A DNA stretch of 22,152 nt from Candidatus Heimdallarchaeota archaeon (GTDB taxonomy: Archaea > Asgardarchaeota > Wukongarchaeia > Wukongarchaeales > JBHIFL01), in assembly GCA_046761065.1 (NCBI GenBank), contig JBHIFL010000065.1, positions 1-22,152 of the forward strand. The letters are read 5' to 3'. The notes beneath the pieces were generated by a model. It was not told the origin of the DNA. It worked only from the letters and a program-made list of their open reading frames with translations, and ran no database searches. Shown piece after piece: positions 12,369-19,567 of the stretch. Position numbers and translations under genes: made by a program. Every line of letters starts with the position of its first letter. Within the stretch, counting starts at the first letter, position 1.

Positions 12369-13697
12369 TTAAATCTCGCAGGGACCATGCCAAGGTTCCA
12401 CCAACTTCTCAGGTTTATGTATTTTTTCCCGCCCAATTCTTTGGGGGGGTTTGGATAAATGCCGCACTGAACGAGGAGGTGGATAATATGTACCTTCTAC
12501 TATATTTCTCGCTTTTGTTTGGCAGATTTTTGTTGTGTTTCGCAACTTTCTTCCACAATTGCACTTGTAACCCTTCCCCTTTCCTGCACTTTTCATACGC
12601 TTTCCACATTCCAGACAAACTGGATTCAGGTAGTCTACGTGCGGAACTAATTCTAAAATGGTTAATTTTTCCAAGTTGAGTGTCATAGGGTTGTGAATCG
12701 TTGGAGGCCTTGTCCCTCCATATACTCTTACTTTGTCTCTAACGAGTAATGCTCGAACCACGTTCCTAAGCTTCCCTGAGGGTTCATACGCCGCACATGG
12801 AATCGTTCCACTTAAATCTTCAAGATCGAAAAACACATGACCTCCTGGAATAGTTCGCGGAGGTGTAGCGACTTTCCCTCTCAATATAACCGGAATATGA
12901 GGTTTAAGATCGGCTATTTGCTGCTCATGGGTGAAATGAGCATCTGTTCCTTGATTCGTTCGGAATATTACCCAACATGCAATCGGTTCATTTACTAATA
13001 TCTGGTTATGTGCGTTATATACAATTTGTGGATTCTCTCCTCGAATCCCATAGAGCACCGGATCCGGCCCATGCGGAGTGATAAGCGATTTTTGCGCTTC
13101 TTCATCCACATTGTTAAAGGTTAGAGGGTGTGTTTTTCGGTTCATGGAGAAGACTGAATTAACATCTACCCTCCGGGGAGTTGCCCAATATTCATTAGAC
13201 CGGAATGCTAAAAGTTCATAAGTATGGTCTCTTTCAAGGGGGTTCCCAAGGGCAGCTAACGCCCCAATTAACCCACGCCCATTTCCCCAAAGGAAATAAT
13301 GCATGTCGTGTTTTTCAGCAAGTTGCTTCGCTGTTTTTATTGTGCATACCGCTGTTAAGGCCGATCGGGAGAACGTGCGTATATCGTTAGCAATTGATTG
13401 GGAATAGACCACTAACCCCGGATTCGTATTTTTAAAGGGTTTCTCATAATAGTCATCGATTGTATATTGTGCTAGCTCTAACACTTTTTCTTCAGTTATA
13501 CTCTGACTTTTAAGCCGTAAACACACAGCTCCATTTCCTCGGGTCTTAAATGGGATATTGGGGTTTAATCGAATTAAATTGGGGTAGTCAACAAACTCTG
13601 CTCCAACCTCTAAAAGGGTCGCAACCAATTTGGCTGCCACATATGTTGTACACCCGCCTTCTAACGAGTCTGTATCATCGAATGCACAACATATCAT
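12369..13697 (-). CDS. tiaS: tRNA(Ile2) 2-agmatinylcytidine synthetase
   Basis: DDTDSLEGGCTTY, P.LIRLNPNIPFKTRGNGAV, GRGLIGALAA, PHGPDPVLYGIRG, TNQGTDAH, GGHVFF OB-fold, Zn ribbon CLECG..MKSAG..GYKC.CG, RHLSKP. Start ATG 13697 or 13712. Confidence 0.96.
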   Translation of the reverse strand: MICCAFDDTDSLEGGCTTYVAAKLVATLLEVGAEFVDYPNLIRLNPNIPFKTRGNGAVCLRLKSQSITEEKVLELAQYTIDDYYEKPFKNTNPGLVVYSQSIANDIRTFSRSALTAVCTIKTAKQLAEKHDMHYFLWGNGRGLIGALAALGNPLERDHTYELLAFRSNEYWATPRRVDVNSVFSMNRKTHPLTFNNVDEEAQKSLITPHGPDPVLYGIRGENPQIVYNAHNQILVNEPIACWVIFRTNQGTDAHFTHEQQIADLKPHIPVILRGKVATPPRTIPGGHVFFDLEDLSGTIPCAAYEPSGKLRNVVRALLVRDKVRVYGGTRPPTIHNPMTLNLEKLTILELVPHVDYLNPVCLECGKRMKSAGKGKGYKCNCGRKLRNTTKICQTKARNIVEGTYYPPPRSVRHLSKPPQRIGREKIHKPEKLVEPWHGPCEI

Positions 13698-13920
13698 CGG
13701 TAACACCCTCATCGTTTGGTTTTTTTGGCATACTCATTGGATCTATTTGCTTTGTGAAGAAGAATGCCCCATAACGCCCTTACACTTACTTGATGGTGTC
13801 TATGGGGCGATCTCTGAATCTTCCTTTTTTTATTTTAATTATCAAAAGACCCTCATGCGAAACAGTGAAGTCTTTCTATTTTCTTCACGAGTACTATATA
13901 TACAATAACTTGGTGATTAG

Positions 13921-14892
13921 ATGAATGCTGAAGACTCTTCTAGGGTAGTTGGACACATAAAAATCCGAGAACAAATGCGGATCGGGGATTTAATCCAGCA
14001 ATTTGACCAATCTGGTGCCTTTGGTGCCGGATGCTTGGCCGAAGCAGCGACTATTTACAATCAAATGCTAACTGATCCCACCACTACAGTGATTACCACT
14101 TTGGCAGGCGCTATGGTTCCTGGCGGCATGCGTCGCATCCTCCGGGATATGCTAACCTTAAAATATACCGATGTTCTAATCACAACCGGAGCAAACTTAA
14201 CCCACGACTTAATTGAGGCGTTTGGCTACCACCATCATCGAAAACCTCCCTCTACCTCGGATGTCTGCTTAAGAGAGCAAGGTATTAGTCGTATACATAA
14301 TGTTTACGTAACGAATCAGGCATTTATCCTCTTGGAAGAACGACTCCAGCAACTTTTTGATGAGATTGCTCCCTCACAATCGGCGATGATCCCCCCCAAC
14401 CGACTTCTCAGAGAATTAGGGCTCCGGATCAACGATCCCAATTCGATTATTGCTACTGCAGCAAAAAGAGGAATCCCGATCTTCTGTCCTGCGATTACTG
14501 ATTCGATATTAGGTCTTCAATTGATGCTTTACGCGGAAACGCATCCTATTTCGCTCGATCCTCTTGCTGACCTTAAGGAACTAATCCACATCGCGTTCGA
14601 GGCGGAAACTACTGGTGTTTTGATTATTGGCGGCGGTGTTCCTAAAAATTATGCCTTGCAAAGCGCCCTGATAACTGGTAAAGGATTCCGTTATGCGGTA
14701 CAACTGACTACTGATCATCCAGAGGCGGGAGGGCTCAGTGGTGCCACACTCAATGAAGCTCAAAGTTGGGGCAAACTCGATCCAAAGGCACAGTTTGCGT
14801 CTGTTATTGCCGATGCAACCATTACCCTCCCCCTTCTCCTCGCATTTATTTTAGAGCAAAATAAGGGCCGGGTACGGGATATCTTTGAATAA
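13921..14892 (+). CDS. dys: Deoxyhypusine synthase family protein
   Basis: GAMVPGGMR, TGANLTHDLIEA, PIFCPAITDS, GGGVPKNY, GGLSGATLNEAQSWGK (catalytic Lys present), DATI.LPL. Confidence 0.93.
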   Translation: MNAEDSSRVVGHIKIREQMRIGDLIQQFDQSGAFGAGCLAEAATIYNQMLTDPTTTVITTLAGAMVPGGMRRILRDMLTLKYTDVLITTGANLTHDLIEAFGYHHHRKPPSTSDVCLREQGISRIHNVYVTNQAFILLEERLQQLFDEIAPSQSAMIPPNRLLRELGLRINDPNSIIATAAKRGIPIFCPAITDSILGLQLMLYAETHPISLDPLADLKELIHIAFEAETTGVLIIGGGVPKNYALQSALITGKGFRYAVQLTTDHPEAGGLSGATLNEAQSWGKLDPKAQFASVIADATITLPLLLAFILEQNKGRVRDIFE

Positions 14893-14996
14893 AAATTGGC
14901 AAATAGTGTATCTGCTTTTCCTTACGATCTGAATCATGCATCGTACCGACTCTGAGCAATCGATTGAGCATAAAAATGCTGCTAAGTTCGATATAT

Positions 14997-15004
14997 AAGA
15001 CTTT
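14997..15004 (+). repeat. 8-bp target-site duplication, left copy (AAGACTTT)
   Basis: Identical to 16390-16397 and abuts IRL. Confidence 0.9.
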
Positions 15005-16389
15005 CTATGATTTTGCATAAAACTTCAGTGGACTGATCACCATTTTTTTAGAGCCGCCGACGAAAATAGGGAGACACCGAATTGCTCAAGTGATGAACTA
15101 TGTTATCAACTCGATGTCTCCTCAGGAATGAAGTCTTCTTTTTTAAAATGTTTTCCGGTGTTCACATCTTCCGCAAGCTTGGATTCCGAGTCCTCGAGAG
15201 CCCCATCACCGCTTTCCACGCGGATAAGTACAAGAAACACTACAAGACCTCCTCCGAGATCCTTACGGTCGTGAACATGAGCATAGAGAATGCCGATTCC
15301 CTCAAGGACATGATTGACGCCCTCAATGCCGATTCCCTCCTGCGTCAGGCCTTCGGCTATATCACCCCGGTCCAGCAGTCCCAACTCTCCCGGGATCTGC
15401 GGCAATGGGACTTGCGGATGTTCCACCAGATTTTACAGGCCCTATTGAAGCTAGCCAAGGCACACCAGCACTTCAAAGGCTTGAAACACGCGAAGTTGAT
15501 CCGAGATCTCGCCGCCTGGGACTTGACCTTCATTTTAGGCAAGCAGGTGGTGGCTCTCGACTCCACCTTCAAAATCCTGAACCCGGACACCTATCCCACG
15601 GTGGAATATGGCTACTGCACCCTGACCGGATGCAAAGAACCCGGCCTCAAGGCCCATCTCGCCCACCACGTCACAGCAGACACTCCAATTGGGCTGGAAG
15701 TGACTCCCGGCAACGTCCACGACTCCACGCAATTCACAGCCCTGTTCAGCTGGGTAACCCGAGTGCTGGATCCAAAGGAGGTCATTCTGACCTATGACAA
15801 GGCGTATTACAAGATAGCCTGGTTTGACGAGCTGTGTGAGGCGGGATACTGGTTCGTGACCCCCCCTTGAAGAAGAATAGTCTGAATCAAGCTCAGATTT
15901 TAAGCGTTGAAGAGTGCTCTCAGAACAATATTCGGATAACAGACCGGGAAATACGGCTTAATACCGGGACCCACAACCTGCGGGCGGTGCACCTGGCCAA
16001 CCAGACCACCGGCGAGGAGTTCCGCCTCCTGACCAATGTCATGGAATGCGAGGCGGAGACGCTCCAAAGGCTGTATAAGGCCCGTTGGCAGATAGAAATC
16101 CTGTTCCGGGCGGTGAAGCAATGTTTCGGACTAAAAACAAAACGGCCAATCGGCCGGTCATTGAATGCCGTCATGATCCCGATCTTCTGTACGATCATAG
16201 CGTACTTAGTGCTCAGTATCTACCGGAGGATGGTGTGCGGGGGGATGACGGTGTTCGAACTAAAGAGACAGATTAAATACGCGCGCCAAAGCTCATGCCA
16301 CGCATGTGACGCGGGAGAATGGGGGAGGAGGTGTCGAGAGGTGAACTTCGCCCCAAAGGAGGTGAATAAATTTTAATGCAAAATCAAAG
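15005..16389 (+). mobile_element. IS4-family insertion sequence, 1385 bp, with intact ends
   Basis: IRL CTATGATTTTGCATAAAA (15005-15022) matches the reverse complement of IRR, CTTTGATTTTGCATTAAA (16372-16389), at 16/18. Direct repeat AAGACTTT at 14997-15004 and 16390-16397. Visibly more GC-rich than the flanks. Confidence 0.93.
15100..16376 (+). pseudogene. IS4-family DDE transposase split by a frameshift at a C7 run (ORFs 15100-15870 and 15867-16376)
   Basis: N-part has a DUF4372-like ADKYKKHY...SLKD segment, ALDST (D1) and TYDKAY (D2). C-part has RLLTN and Y-x2-R-W-x-I-E-x6-K (YREK). The junction FVTPP*/LKKN puts the second ORF in the -1 frame. Confidence 0.85.
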
Positions 16390-16397
16390 AAGACTTT
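16390..16397 (+). repeat. 8-bp target-site duplication, right copy (AAGACTTT)
   Basis: Identical to 14997-15004 and abuts IRR. Confidence 0.9.
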
Positions 16398-16404
16398 ATG
16401 AAAA

Positions 16405-16412
16405 TTTATAAA
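16405..16412 (+). promoter_or_regulatory. Putative TATA box of the ABC operon
   Basis: TTTATAAA preceded by purine-rich GAAAA (BRE-like), about 40 nt upstream of ATG 16452. Confidence 0.55.
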
Positions 16413-16451
16413 GGTCTTTCCGGATACTACAGAAGGTTGGGGATAAATTTT

Positions 16452-17381
16452 ATGTCTCAGTCTGCTCTACGGGTTTCAAACCTGACGAAGTTCTATGGGA
16501 ATTTTAAAGCTTTGGATTCTGTTTCTTTTTCGGTAGAGGCGGGATGGATCTATGGTTACCTTGGACCAAATGGGGCAGGAAAGACGACCACTATCCGGAC
16601 GATGTTAGGCCTACTTCGACCCGATGAAGGTGAAGTGCAGATCACAGGGGTTAACCCGTATAAAAATCCGGTGCAGACTCTTCAGATCGTTGGTTATGCC
16701 CCGGAACTTCCCAATCTGCAGACCTTCTTCAATGGCGAGCAGCTACTCGATTTTACTGGTAAGATTTTTGGGCTATCGCATAAGGTCAGGAGGGATAGGG
16801 TTAAACAACTCCTACAACTCGTGGGTCTAAAGGATGTTAAGAAGAAGATCGGAAAGTACAGTAAAGGTATGGTTCAGAGGCTCTCCATCGCCCAATCCCT
16901 CATTAACAACCCTACCATCCTCATTATGGACGAACCCACAATTGGGATGGATCCAGAGGCCACCGCCCACTTCAGGGATCTTATAACAAACTTCCCAAAA
17001 GAAGGGAAGACGGTATTTATCTCATCCCATCTCCTCGGTGAGGTTCAGAGGATCTGTACCCATGTAGGAGTAATCGACAAGGGCAAAATCATCGTCGACG
17101 GTCCAATATCACGGGTACTGGAAGCCTTCACCCAACAGTGGGTCGTGGAGGCTGAGTTGAAACAGGTAACCCCAGAGATCATCACCCACCTTCAACAGCT
17201 CAGTTATGTACAGAATGTCCAGACTTTGGGGAACAAGCTCCTCATTGAGCTTAATGAGAAGAAGGACTTTCGGGGTGAGATATCCTCTGAGATCGTAAAA
17301 CACAAAGGCGTTCTGCTGAGCTTGAACCTCCACAGGATCACACTTGAGGAGGCTTATCTACGGGCCTTGAGGGGAGGTTGA
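16452..17381 (+). CDS. ABC-2/DrrA-type transporter ATP-binding protein
   Basis: Walker A GPNGAGKTT, signature YSKGMVQR, Walker B ILIMDEPT, H-loop SSHLLGEV. ATG 16452 is preferred to 16398, whose 5' extension covers the TATA box. Confidence 0.95.
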   Translation: MSQSALRVSNLTKFYGNFKALDSVSFSVEAGWIYGYLGPNGAGKTTTIRTMLGLLRPDEGEVQITGVNPYKNPVQTLQIVGYAPELPNLQTFFNGEQLLDFTGKIFGLSHKVRRDRVKQLLQLVGLKDVKKKIGKYSKGMVQRLSIAQSLINNPTILIMDEPTIGMDPEATAHFRDLITNFPKEGKTVFISSHLLGEVQRICTHVGVIDKGKIIVDGPISRVLEAFTQQWVVEAELKQVTPEIITHLQQLSYVQNVQTLGNKLLIELNEKKDFRGEISSEIVKHKGVLLSLNLHRITLEEAYLRALRGG

Positions 17382-18250
17382 TACCAGTGCACTTCCTTCA
17401 GAGGTCTGCTAACCTCATAGTTTATGAAGTTCGGAGGGCGTTGGCAAAGAAAAAGATCTATGTCTTGTTGATTTTGGCATTCGCGCTTCAAATAGGCATC
17501 TATACGTTGTTCAAATACGTATTCACCAATCCTCCCCCTGAAGTTACCATTACTGGGCCTCCCCTGGAAGAGTTTAAAGGGACTATGTGGCTTCTCGGTG
17601 TGTTGGGTGGTTCTCAAGGTTTATTCATTCCTATTATCGCCATAATCATCGCTGGTGGATCTATGTCTGAAGAATACGAACACGGAACCGCTGACATTCT
17701 GCTTTCAAAACCTGTTACGAGGATAGAATATGTGACCGGCAAGTATTTGGGCGGTTTATCGTTTTTAAGCCTTATAATCGCTCTGATCACCGGTTTGGGC
17801 GTTGCCTTGGCCTACGGACTTTTCGGCCCGCAGGATTCCCTTCATCTTGTTCCTGTTGTGTACATGGCCCTAGTCTACGCAAACCTCCTCTTCTTCTCAC
17901 TGGCCTTCATGTTCAGCGAGATCATCAGAAGCACCACATCCGCCATTATGGCCGCTATCGGCATATTCATCGGCTCCATAGCGGTCGGCAGCTACCTTTC
18001 CGTGCTATACGCCATGACACAACAACAGCTTTACTTGAATATTAGCAGATGGCTTCCATACTGGACCACCTCAAACTTTCCTAGCTTCGTGATCTCAGAG
18101 CTCATGACTACTCCAAGCAGCCCCTTCGTGTCGGTACAAAGTGGAAACCTTCAACTAGCTGCCACAATTATTGCGGTTTACACCACTGCCTCCATCTTAA
18201 TAGCCACATTCAAACTAATCAGATCTGATATTACAAAGAAACCTGATTAA
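17378..18250 (+). CDS. ABC-2 type transporter permease
   Basis: About six hydrophobic segments; SEEYEHGT..ILLSKPVTR..Y..GKYLG motif; TTGA overlap with the ATPase stop. Confidence 0.92.
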   Translation: MIPVHFLQRSANLIVYEVRRALAKKKIYVLLILAFALQIGIYTLFKYVFTNPPPEVTITGPPLEEFKGTMWLLGVLGGSQGLFIPIIAIIIAGGSMSEEYEHGTADILLSKPVTRIEYVTGKYLGGLSFLSLIIALITGLGVALAYGLFGPQDSLHLVPVVYMALVYANLLFFSLAFMFSEIIRSTTSAIMAAIGIFIGSIAVGSYLSVLYAMTQQQLYLNISRWLPYWTTSNFPSFVISELMTTPSSPFVSVQSGNLQLAATIIAVYTTASILIATFKLIRSDITKKPD

Positions 18251-18416
18251 CTGCCCCTTCTTTCTCTAACACAAAATTTCTTAGCGTCTCTCGACATTTG
18301 GTGGAATCTAAGATTTTCTAGGGCAAAGGTCCTATCGTCACGACCTCAGAAAGCCATTAGATCTCTTTAGAATAAAAAAAGTAACAAGAAAGGACATCTC
18401 TTGGTTAATATAAATA

Positions 18417-18579
18417 TGGTAGCGGGGGGTGGATTTGAACCACCGATATCTCGACGGGGGAGTAGATTTCAACTACCACCGCTCTCGGGGTATCTCCGCG
18501 CGAGCTTATGAGCCCCGCGGGATTTCAGGCTGCCAACAAGACTTAATACGTAGCAATCTCCTGGCTACCCCACCCCGCT
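18417..18579 (-). tRNA. Initiator tRNA-Met (CAT) with three introns
   Basis: Exons 18579-18558, 18523-18507, 18491-18484 and 18447-18417 splice to 78 nt: AGCGGGGTGGGGTAGCCAGGAGATCCCGCGGGGCTCATAACCCCGAGATCGGTGGTTCAAATCCACCCCCCGCTACCA. A1-U72 pair, three consecutive G-C pairs in the anticodon stem, encoded CCA. Introns: 34 nt (20a/21), 15 nt (37/38), 36 nt (45/46). Confidence 0.92.
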
Positions 18580-18890
18580 TGGGTTATGGGGCAACAATTC
18601 TTTTTAGGATGATTAGGATTATTTATCATAGATGAATATTTCGGTTTGATACGAGTTCTTGGAAGATATAAATGATATTACTCCGTTGGCACAATCAAAA
18701 TGTGGTGTGACGCACCCTTTCCTTTGACCTACGAACAACGTTTCCTCGTATATTGGGCACCAAAGATATTATTTTGCTTTAGGAATCGAATCCACCTATG
18801 CCTCATTGGAAAGATAATGTAAAACTCTCGAATTCTCCAAAGACTACTTTCAAGAACAAATAAATACTCGCAGTTGAACCTAGCAAAGAA

Positions 18891-18897
18891 TTTATAA
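18891..18897 (+). promoter_or_regulatory. Putative BRE/TATA for rpl12
   Basis: CAAAGAA followed by TTTATAA, about 80 nt upstream of the start; SD-like GAGGTG at 18963-18968. Confidence 0.5.
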
Positions 18898-18975
18898 CAT
18901 CAGTTGTACATCTCTCCATTAGATGATATTATAAAATGGAAGAGTCTAGGCAATTTAAGCAAGAGGTGCACGATG

Positions 18976-19287
18976 ATGGAGTATTTACATGCAGCACTGC
19001 TATTGCATTCAGCAAATAAACCAATTGATGAAGCAAGTTTGAGCAAGGTTCTAAAAGCTGCGGGTCTTTCCCCTGATGAAGCCCGAATCAAAGCGCTTGT
19101 GGCCGCTCTAGACGGGGTGGATATTGATGAGGCGATCAAAACCGCCCCTAGCTTTGCAGTCGCTCCAGCGGCAGCAGCGGCTCCAACGGCTTCTAGTGCT
19201 CAACCGGCAGTTACCAAAGAAAAAGTAAAAGAAGAGAAAAAGGAAGAGGAAGAGGAAGACTTAGGATTATCTTCCCTATTTGGATAG
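18976..19287 (+). CDS. rpl12: 50S ribosomal stalk protein L12 (aP1/P12)
   Basis: [35 protein letters not shown], Ala-rich hinge, acidic tail [14 protein letters not shown]. The start follows GAGGTG, so the ORF-track start at 18904 is too long. Confidence 0.95.
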
Positions 19288-19409
19288 GGCTTCCCGTTTT
19301 TCTACTTTCCCCCCTCCTCTATCCCCCTTTGTGTCTCTCAATGATAAAGATATTACTTATAGAAAGGTATATTTTTTCACCCATCTTTTTCTGAACTATA
19401 GTATCGGCC

Positions 19410-19567
19410 GGGCCCGTAGCTCAGCCTGGATTGTCTAATCTCCGTCGTTTAGATTAGTGCTAGACAGAGCACCGGCCTTCTATCCACTAGGGGAGCCAGC
19501 CGGTGGTCATGGGTTCAAAAAAAGCAAAGGATAACCTTTGTCATGGAGACTCCCATCGGGCCCGCCA
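19410..19567 (+). tRNA. tRNA-Arg (TCT) with three introns
   Basis: Exons 19410-19431, 19466-19482, 19498-19519 and 19551-19567 splice to 78 nt: GGGCCCGTAGCTCAGCCTGGATAGAGCACCGGCCTTCTAAGCCGGTGGTCATGGGTTCAAATCCCATCGGGCCCGCCA. Introns: 34 nt (20a/21), 15 nt (37/38), 31 nt (59/60). Confidence 0.92.

Follow-up and report, generated by a model that had tools for sequence, protein, structure and literature searches.

The initiator tRNA (iMet) and tRNA-Arg(TCT) genes of an Asgard archaeon are each interrupted at three sites, and form clean 78-nt cloverleaves only after all three inserts have been removed. Both are found on contig C65 of the source genome (G000), in the stretch of 22,152 nucleotides that was analysed (hereafter the window). 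They are very probably functional, the only detectable genes for iMet and Arg(UCU), each with three BHB introns that would be cut by an (alpha-beta)2 EndA and joined by RtcB. The iMet(CAT) gene covers 163 nt of the minus strand (18579..18417), with exons of 22, 17, 8 and 31 nt; the Arg(TCT) gene covers 158 nt of the plus strand (19410..19567), with exons of 22, 17, 22 and 17 nt. In both cases the exons add up to 78 nt, the CCA is encoded, and the ribosomal P1 gene stands between the two. ARAGORN calls the spliced products as tRNA-Met(cat) and tRNA-Arg(tct), 78 bases each and with complete cloverleaves, whereas it calls no tRNA in either unspliced gene; across the whole window, both ARAGORN and an Rfam gathering scan report zero tRNAs. 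Read directly from the sequence, the iMet product pairs A1 with U72 and closes the bottom of its anticodon stem with three G-C pairs, as is typical of archaeal initiators. A search of the whole assembly (91.5% complete, 8.2% contamination, 234 contigs) with both spliced sequences, using blastn-short, matched only these exons and gave no second copy of either gene. A sequence-only reading of the window had given exactly these gene ends and had obtained the two cloverleaves by taking out three introns from each gene, all of which holds. It had also expected standard annotation probably to miss or miscall both genes, which the two scans do miss, and had named intact intron-less iMet and Arg(TCT) genes elsewhere, together with an absence of spliced reads, as a refutation; no such gene turned up in the assembly search.

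The six inserts occupy the sites which that reading had assigned to them. Each gene has a 34-nt intron in the D-loop at 20a/21 (gene positions 23-56), namely iMet intron 1 (18524..18557, minus strand) and Arg intron 1 (19432..19465, plus strand), and a 15-nt intron at gene positions 74-88, in the anticodon loop at 37/38 for iMet intron 2 (18492..18506, minus) and at the canonical 37/38 position for Arg intron 2 (19483..19497, plus). The third intron is in the variable loop at 45/46 in iMet (36 nt, 18448..18483, minus, gene positions 97-132), and in the T-loop at 59/60 in Arg (31 nt, 19520..19550, plus, gene positions 111-141). After splicing, the predicted D-loop junctions read AGCCAGGAG followed by A and AGCCTGGAT followed by A. 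The others are predicted as CAUA-A and UCUA-A, AG-AUC in the variable loop and UUCAAA-U in the T-loop, with hyphens marking the joins.

All six junctions are BHB-like, and only one is a strict canonical BHB. This is Arg intron 2 (CTTC/GGAG, 4/4 pairs, bulges TA^T and CC^A), where the anticodon stem provides a 7-bp outer helix and the inner helix has 2 bp, giving a strict hBHBh' motif. In iMet intron 1 the central helix CAGG/CCTG pairs at 4/4 positions between bulges AG^A and AA^A, and a 6-bp inner helix is present while an adjacent outer helix is absent, an HBh'-like arrangement. The remaining four are of the relaxed class. Arg intron 1 has a 4/4 central helix (CTGG/CTAG) with bulges AT^T and AC^A, and small loops displace both flanking helices: a 7-bp internal hairpin stands behind a 2x2 loop, and the adjacent outer helix is 1 bp only. 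The bulges and helices of the two D-loop introns had been quoted in the same form in the sequence-only reading. In both, the 3' "bulge" is opposite A14-G15-C16, and is therefore really part of an internal loop. For iMet intron 2, direct reading of the sequence gives CTCA/GGAG (3/4), with the anticodon stem adjoining in register as outer helix; its boundary slides by 1 nt, and the slid version, TCAT/GAGA, likewise pairs at 3/4. The central helix of iMet intron 3 is CCCG/CGAG (3/4) with a 4-bp inner helix, and in Arg intron 3, where the T-stem supplies an outer helix of 5 bp, it is TTCA/GGAG (3/4).

With the boundaries fixed by compact homologues (slide of 1 nt at most), the central helix thus pairs at 4/4 positions in three of the six introns and at 3/4 in the other three. 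Among arbitrary excisions of the same lengths within the same two genes, about 3% score 4/4 and about 11–14% score 3/4, so that six out of six introns at 3/4 or better is far beyond chance. A single 3/4 central helix on its own is weak evidence, and the weakness of individual 3/4 motifs is also stressed in a 2026 preprint on Asgard tRNA genes (bioRxiv 10.64898/2026.10.13.758758). As a detector, a loose BHB scan (4/4 central pairs plus any 2-bp flank) was rejected, having returned dozens of chance matches in both genes.

The placement of the boundaries comes from compact homologues. In a spliced alignment of the predicted mature iMet with iMet loci from about 30 genomes in the phylum, the spliced product agrees with the compact iMet gene L029 (genome G075) at 77/78 positions, and the variable loop left by removal of intron 3, AGATC, is that of the relatives' compact iMet genes. 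A genome of the same order (G001) has an uninterrupted variable loop and T-arm, CCCCG-AGATC-GGTGG, which sets iMet intron 3 at 45/46 and rules out a repeated CGGTGGT as its excision site. A compact Arg gene (L063) agrees with the spliced Arg product over the first 27 nt (27/27), and the Arg genes of G001 and of a further genome, G002, have exactly the T-arm and acceptor end of that product. In the latter two genomes the restored GGTTCAAATCCCATCGGGCCCGCCA is found uninterrupted, and removal of Arg intron 3 restores TTCAAAT plus CCCAT exactly as they have it. Introns in the iMet genes of relatives are found at 7/8, 13/14, about 19, 20a/21, 37/38 and 47/48, and these varied sites agree with the repeated intron gains in Asgard tRNAs described in the 2026 preprint.

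The same homologues bear on the possibility that the genes are spliced with at least one boundary placed differently, iMet intron 3 being excised within CGGTGGT or Arg intron 3 as a 30-nt intron. The 7-nt direct repeat CGGTGGT would permit eight excisions (47/48 to 54/55), all with an equal product, and the 30-nt Arg excision would have a perfect 4/4 central helix (TTCA/TGGA). However, the eight iMet excisions would leave the variable loop AGAGC rather than the AGATC of the relatives' compact genes, G001 included, and the alternative sites form 0–3 of 4 central pairs; the 30-nt Arg excision would produce an 8-nt T-loop, against TTCAAAT-CCCAT in G001 and G002. Such a shift of boundary is improbable.

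Two irregularities were seen among the relatives. The 3' part of the G001 iMet gene (L010, G001:C33:1-199; position 38 to CCA) lies 174 nt from the contig start, with no recognisable 5' exons upstream, and no iMet 5' exon was found anywhere in G001 or G002; an assembly gap or a split gene could explain this, as could a long intron or additional introns. In G012 and G042, compact Arg(TCT)-like genes (L055 and L050) read CCGGC-CCTCTAA-GCCGG, which would put C at position 33, as opposed to the near-universal U.

Two full-length actins of the eukaryote type (454 and 445 bits) are encoded in the source genome, as is a profilin that passes the Pfam cut-off; the profilin family has no match in any of 14 control prokaryotes. 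The genome therefore belongs to an Asgard archaeon and not to a member of the Thermoproteales. An Asgard lineage had been thought probable from the window alone, and a Thermoproteales origin, which would have lowered the novelty of the genes, is ruled out. In the genome set compared, its GTDB class is represented by three species, the source included, and the single-contig genomes among the relatives searched have the phylum alone in common with it.

Interrupted genes are the rule in this genome. In 4.4 Mb, ARAGORN finds only 3 intron-less tRNAs, and only 12 matches to RF00005 exceed the cut-off. A motif-free census was made by spliced alignment of 55 compact reference tRNAs from relatives over the ORF-masked genome; loci were kept only if ARAGORN called the spliced product a tRNA, and inserts were counted from 10 nt upwards. 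The final run used a heavier intron penalty, since a cheap one over-split genes and forced the reference anticodon on them, and the intron option of ARAGORN was left out of reference building because it mis-assigns anticodons. This gave 35 genes (median length, 136 nt), of which 32 (91%) are interrupted: 3, 11, 10, 10 and 1 genes have 0, 1, 2, 3 and 4 inserts, respectively, so that 21 of the 35 contain at least two and 11 at least three. The mean, at least 1.86 inserts per gene, should be taken as a rough minimum. The census is rough, with distant references, some boundaries and anticodon calls approximate, and about 10 expected genes unrecovered, and its figures are probably underestimates. 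Even so, the genome-wide intron-rich tRNA set that had been conjectured from two genes is borne out. In genomes of this kind, most tRNA genes escape ARAGORN and Rfam. A relative with a complete, single-contig genome of 3.6 Mb (G037) has only 10 RF00005 matches at E <= 1e-5, and its tRNA set is probably heavily interrupted too. At G029:C54:19101-26270, about 25 compact tRNA genes form two arrays on one contig; these arrays might be mobile or viral.

An insert in the T-loop region occurs in 18 of the 35 census genes. These inserts are about 28–32 nt long, usually with an A-run at the start and ...TTGG(A/G) at the end (examples are C20:38408-38554, C5:40137-40294, C1:153603-153766 and C1:148946-149125). 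The hairpin of Arg intron 3, CAAAGGATAACCTTTG, has a weak match (14/16, p = 0.025) in the T-loop intron of a C20 gene for Lys(TTT). The T-loop inserts may be a loose intron family, or may have converged on pairing with TTCA. For the other five introns, the best matches among all other census introns were no better than those of shuffles (p 0.2–0.75), and closely related introns recurring across tRNA genes, as in the transposed families of the Thermoproteales, were not found here.

A pattern scan of metagenome contigs yielded one relative, JABAOC010016790.1 (L079), whose flanking protein genes are 84–87% identical to those of the window, with gene order conserved. Between the two, the iMet exons are 100% identical, and L079 has introns of 33, 15 and 35 nt at the same three positions. 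The hairpin loop of intron 1 is heavily diverged; six helix pairs are kept through one-sided changes (T-A to T-G, G-C to G-T, T-G to C-G), with a seventh added. Intron 2 is identical in sequence. Arg intron 1 is at the same site with 3 substitutions, and the contig ends within the Arg gene, before introns 2 and 3. The presence of the same architecture in a diverged sequence argues against decaying pseudogenes, disrupted by insertions and with working copies in unassembled DNA. An assembly that is incomplete (91.5%) and fragmented (234 contigs) could harbour such copies, and both loci are rejected by standard finders. Against this, the exons are intact and identical or nearly so to those of relatives though the flanks are about 15% diverged, the inserts are retained in L079, all six junctions are BHB-like, the assembly is without any other iMet or Arg(TCT) copy, and 91% of the recovered tRNA genes share this build; pseudogenes are accordingly a very unlikely explanation. 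Chimeric joins or a contaminant contig, for which the contamination estimate of 8.2% might speak, can be dismissed, since the independent L079 contig has the same architecture in diverged sequence with conserved gene order, and the same style of interruption occurs on many contigs of the source genome.

The enzymes that such genes would need are encoded in the genome. There are two EndA paralogues, on C15 and C2, each with PF01974 and PF02778. The C15 protein (195 aa) has as its best PDB match the catalytic alpha subunit of Aeropyrum pernix (A. pernix 3P1Z_B; E 7e-41, end to end), and it retains the catalytic Tyr, His and Lys (VYEHG...IDHSPF...SVRKRF when aligned with the A. pernix alpha chain). 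Its N-terminal loop segment GIRKPKSPHF aligns ungapped to VEKPRGADF of A. pernix, so that K50, counted from the alignment, equals K44 of the L1/CSL (Crenarchaea-specific loop), the residue whose role is given in PMC5829648. The C2 protein (214 aa) is beta-like, having Ala at the position of M. jannaschii His125 (GRDPAKLF). RtcB is found on C14 (534 bits). Judged by its subunit sequences, the EndA pair has the (alpha-beta)2 pattern with an L1 loop, resembling the A. pernix enzyme (3P1Z, 3AJV; PMC5829648) in its catalytic triad, in its L1-loop lysine and in the absence of the catalytic His from the second paralogue. It differs from crenarchaeal EndA in its beta-like paralogue, whose sequence is nearer to M. 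jannaschii EndA than to any crenarchaeal chain of known structure. Among the clusters listed in a protein atlas look-up for the alpha subunit, the commonest taxa were Bathyarchaeota or Nitrososphaerota only. An (alpha-beta)2 EndA with the L1 loop had already been reported for Asgard in 2018 (PMC5829648), where relaxed and non-canonical introns are described as cut only by loop-bearing (alpha-beta)2 and epsilon2 enzymes. The sequence-only reading had supposed an endonuclease of broad specificity and had proposed that EndA be classified; the putative (alpha-beta)2 assignment, with a loop-bearing catalytic alpha and a His-less paralogue, fits that supposition.

In the proposed pathway, each gene would be transcribed as a precursor of about 160 nt with three protein-spliced (BHB-type) introns. 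The heteromeric (alpha-beta)2 endonuclease with its L1/CSL loop would cut the two bulges flanking each 4-bp central helix, and RtcB would ligate the exons to 78-nt tRNAs with their genome-encoded CCA. One strict and five relaxed junctions make up the substrate class known for loop-bearing (alpha-beta)2 enzymes. Splicing in vivo, the exact phosphodiesters cleaved and the order of removal are predictions. With regard to order, the central helix of iMet intron 3 takes up the 3' strand of the anticodon stem, which is also the outer helix of intron 2. The two motifs are thus mutually exclusive and cannot coexist, and removal is probably sequential.

Heavily interrupted tRNA genes are already known from Asgard archaea. 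In complete genomes of Atabeyarchaeia and Freyarchaeia, introns occur in 92–95% of tRNA genes, more than half of the genes have several, and the positions are often non-canonical (Valentin-Alvarado et al. 2024, PMC11291895). The preprint of October 2026 (bioRxiv 10.64898/2026.10.13.758758) adds a census of 90 Asgard genomes, with about 2.2 introns per gene in intron-rich families; the mean of at least 1.86 found here is within the range of those families, though the pipelines differ. The present set is like the published ones in the share of interrupted genes (32/35) and of genes with several introns (21/35), in its many non-canonical D-arm and T-arm sites, in having two EndA paralogues, in D-arm introns that standard tools miss, and in the scarcity of families common to several tRNA types. 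The novelty implied by the sequence-only reading does not survive this comparison, since intron-saturated Asgard tRNA sets are in print; the two genes are a further example and not a new phenomenon, although no paper was found that describes these two genes in particular.

The multi-intron tRNAs of the Thermoproteales (Sugahara 2008; Fujishima 2010), as far as they are summarised in PMC4090602 and the 2026 preprint, offer the other parallel: a tRNA there can have as many as three introns, non-canonical positions occur along with relaxed BHB motifs, and the (alpha-beta)2 EndA bears the CSL/L1 loop. The present organism belongs to a different phylum, as actin and profilin indicate, and, unlike the transposed families outlined in those summaries, five of the six introns are without a detectable relative in the other tRNA genes of the genome.

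The two genes leave the published picture unchanged. They extend it to a further Asgard genome, outside the classes of the single-contig relatives searched, in which even the initiator tRNA would need multi-step splicing. This means that translation initiation would depend on EndA and RtcB. With introns in the D-loop, the anticodon loop and the variable loop or T-loop, they also provide two clean, conserved test substrates for the substrate range of an Asgard (alpha-beta)2 EndA.

A possibly new detail is the likeness of iMet intron 3 to the 3' end of its own gene. Gene positions 99-134, which make up most of the intron, resemble a degenerate tandem copy of positions 135-166 (window 18414-18481, minus strand), a stretch of 32 nt that runs from C48 through the T-arm and the 3' acceptor strand to CCA and 3 nt of trailer. 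For this alignment z = 8.4, a score reached by 1 in 20,000 shuffles (p about 1e-4); the same self-comparison in L079 gives z = 4.2. The other five introns of the two genes show no likeness of this kind to their own gene. Genome-wide, iMet intron 3 is the only one of 62 introns to resemble its own exons at p < 0.01, and tandem duplication was therefore rejected as a general origin of introns. A 7-nt repeat in the Arg gene, GTCATGG, was also discarded, being at chance level. Tentatively, and with the odds somewhat against it, iMet intron 3 could be a decayed tandem copy, produced by duplication or left as an integration scar at the 3' end of the tRNA gene, and later excised as a BHB intron. Local duplication and the integration-scar model of Sugahara et al. 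2012 (PMC3293823) both agree with the intron. If true, a duplication-like origin would be a testable lead on how tRNA introns are gained. Neither an integrase nor an att repeat was found near the iMet gene: the 3.5-kb segment directly downstream of it contains no integrase, and an att-like repeat of the iMet 3' end was looked for at the far side of that segment and not found. This segment (window 14868-18406) is missing from the otherwise collinear L079, and contains a DDE transposase split in two ORFs (15100-15870 and 15867-16376) and an ABC transporter pair (16398-18250). Elsewhere in the window, 12369-13712 (minus strand) and 13921-14892 (plus strand) encode TiaS (tRNA-Ile2 agmatidine synthetase) and deoxyhypusine synthase, ordinary translation-related neighbours.
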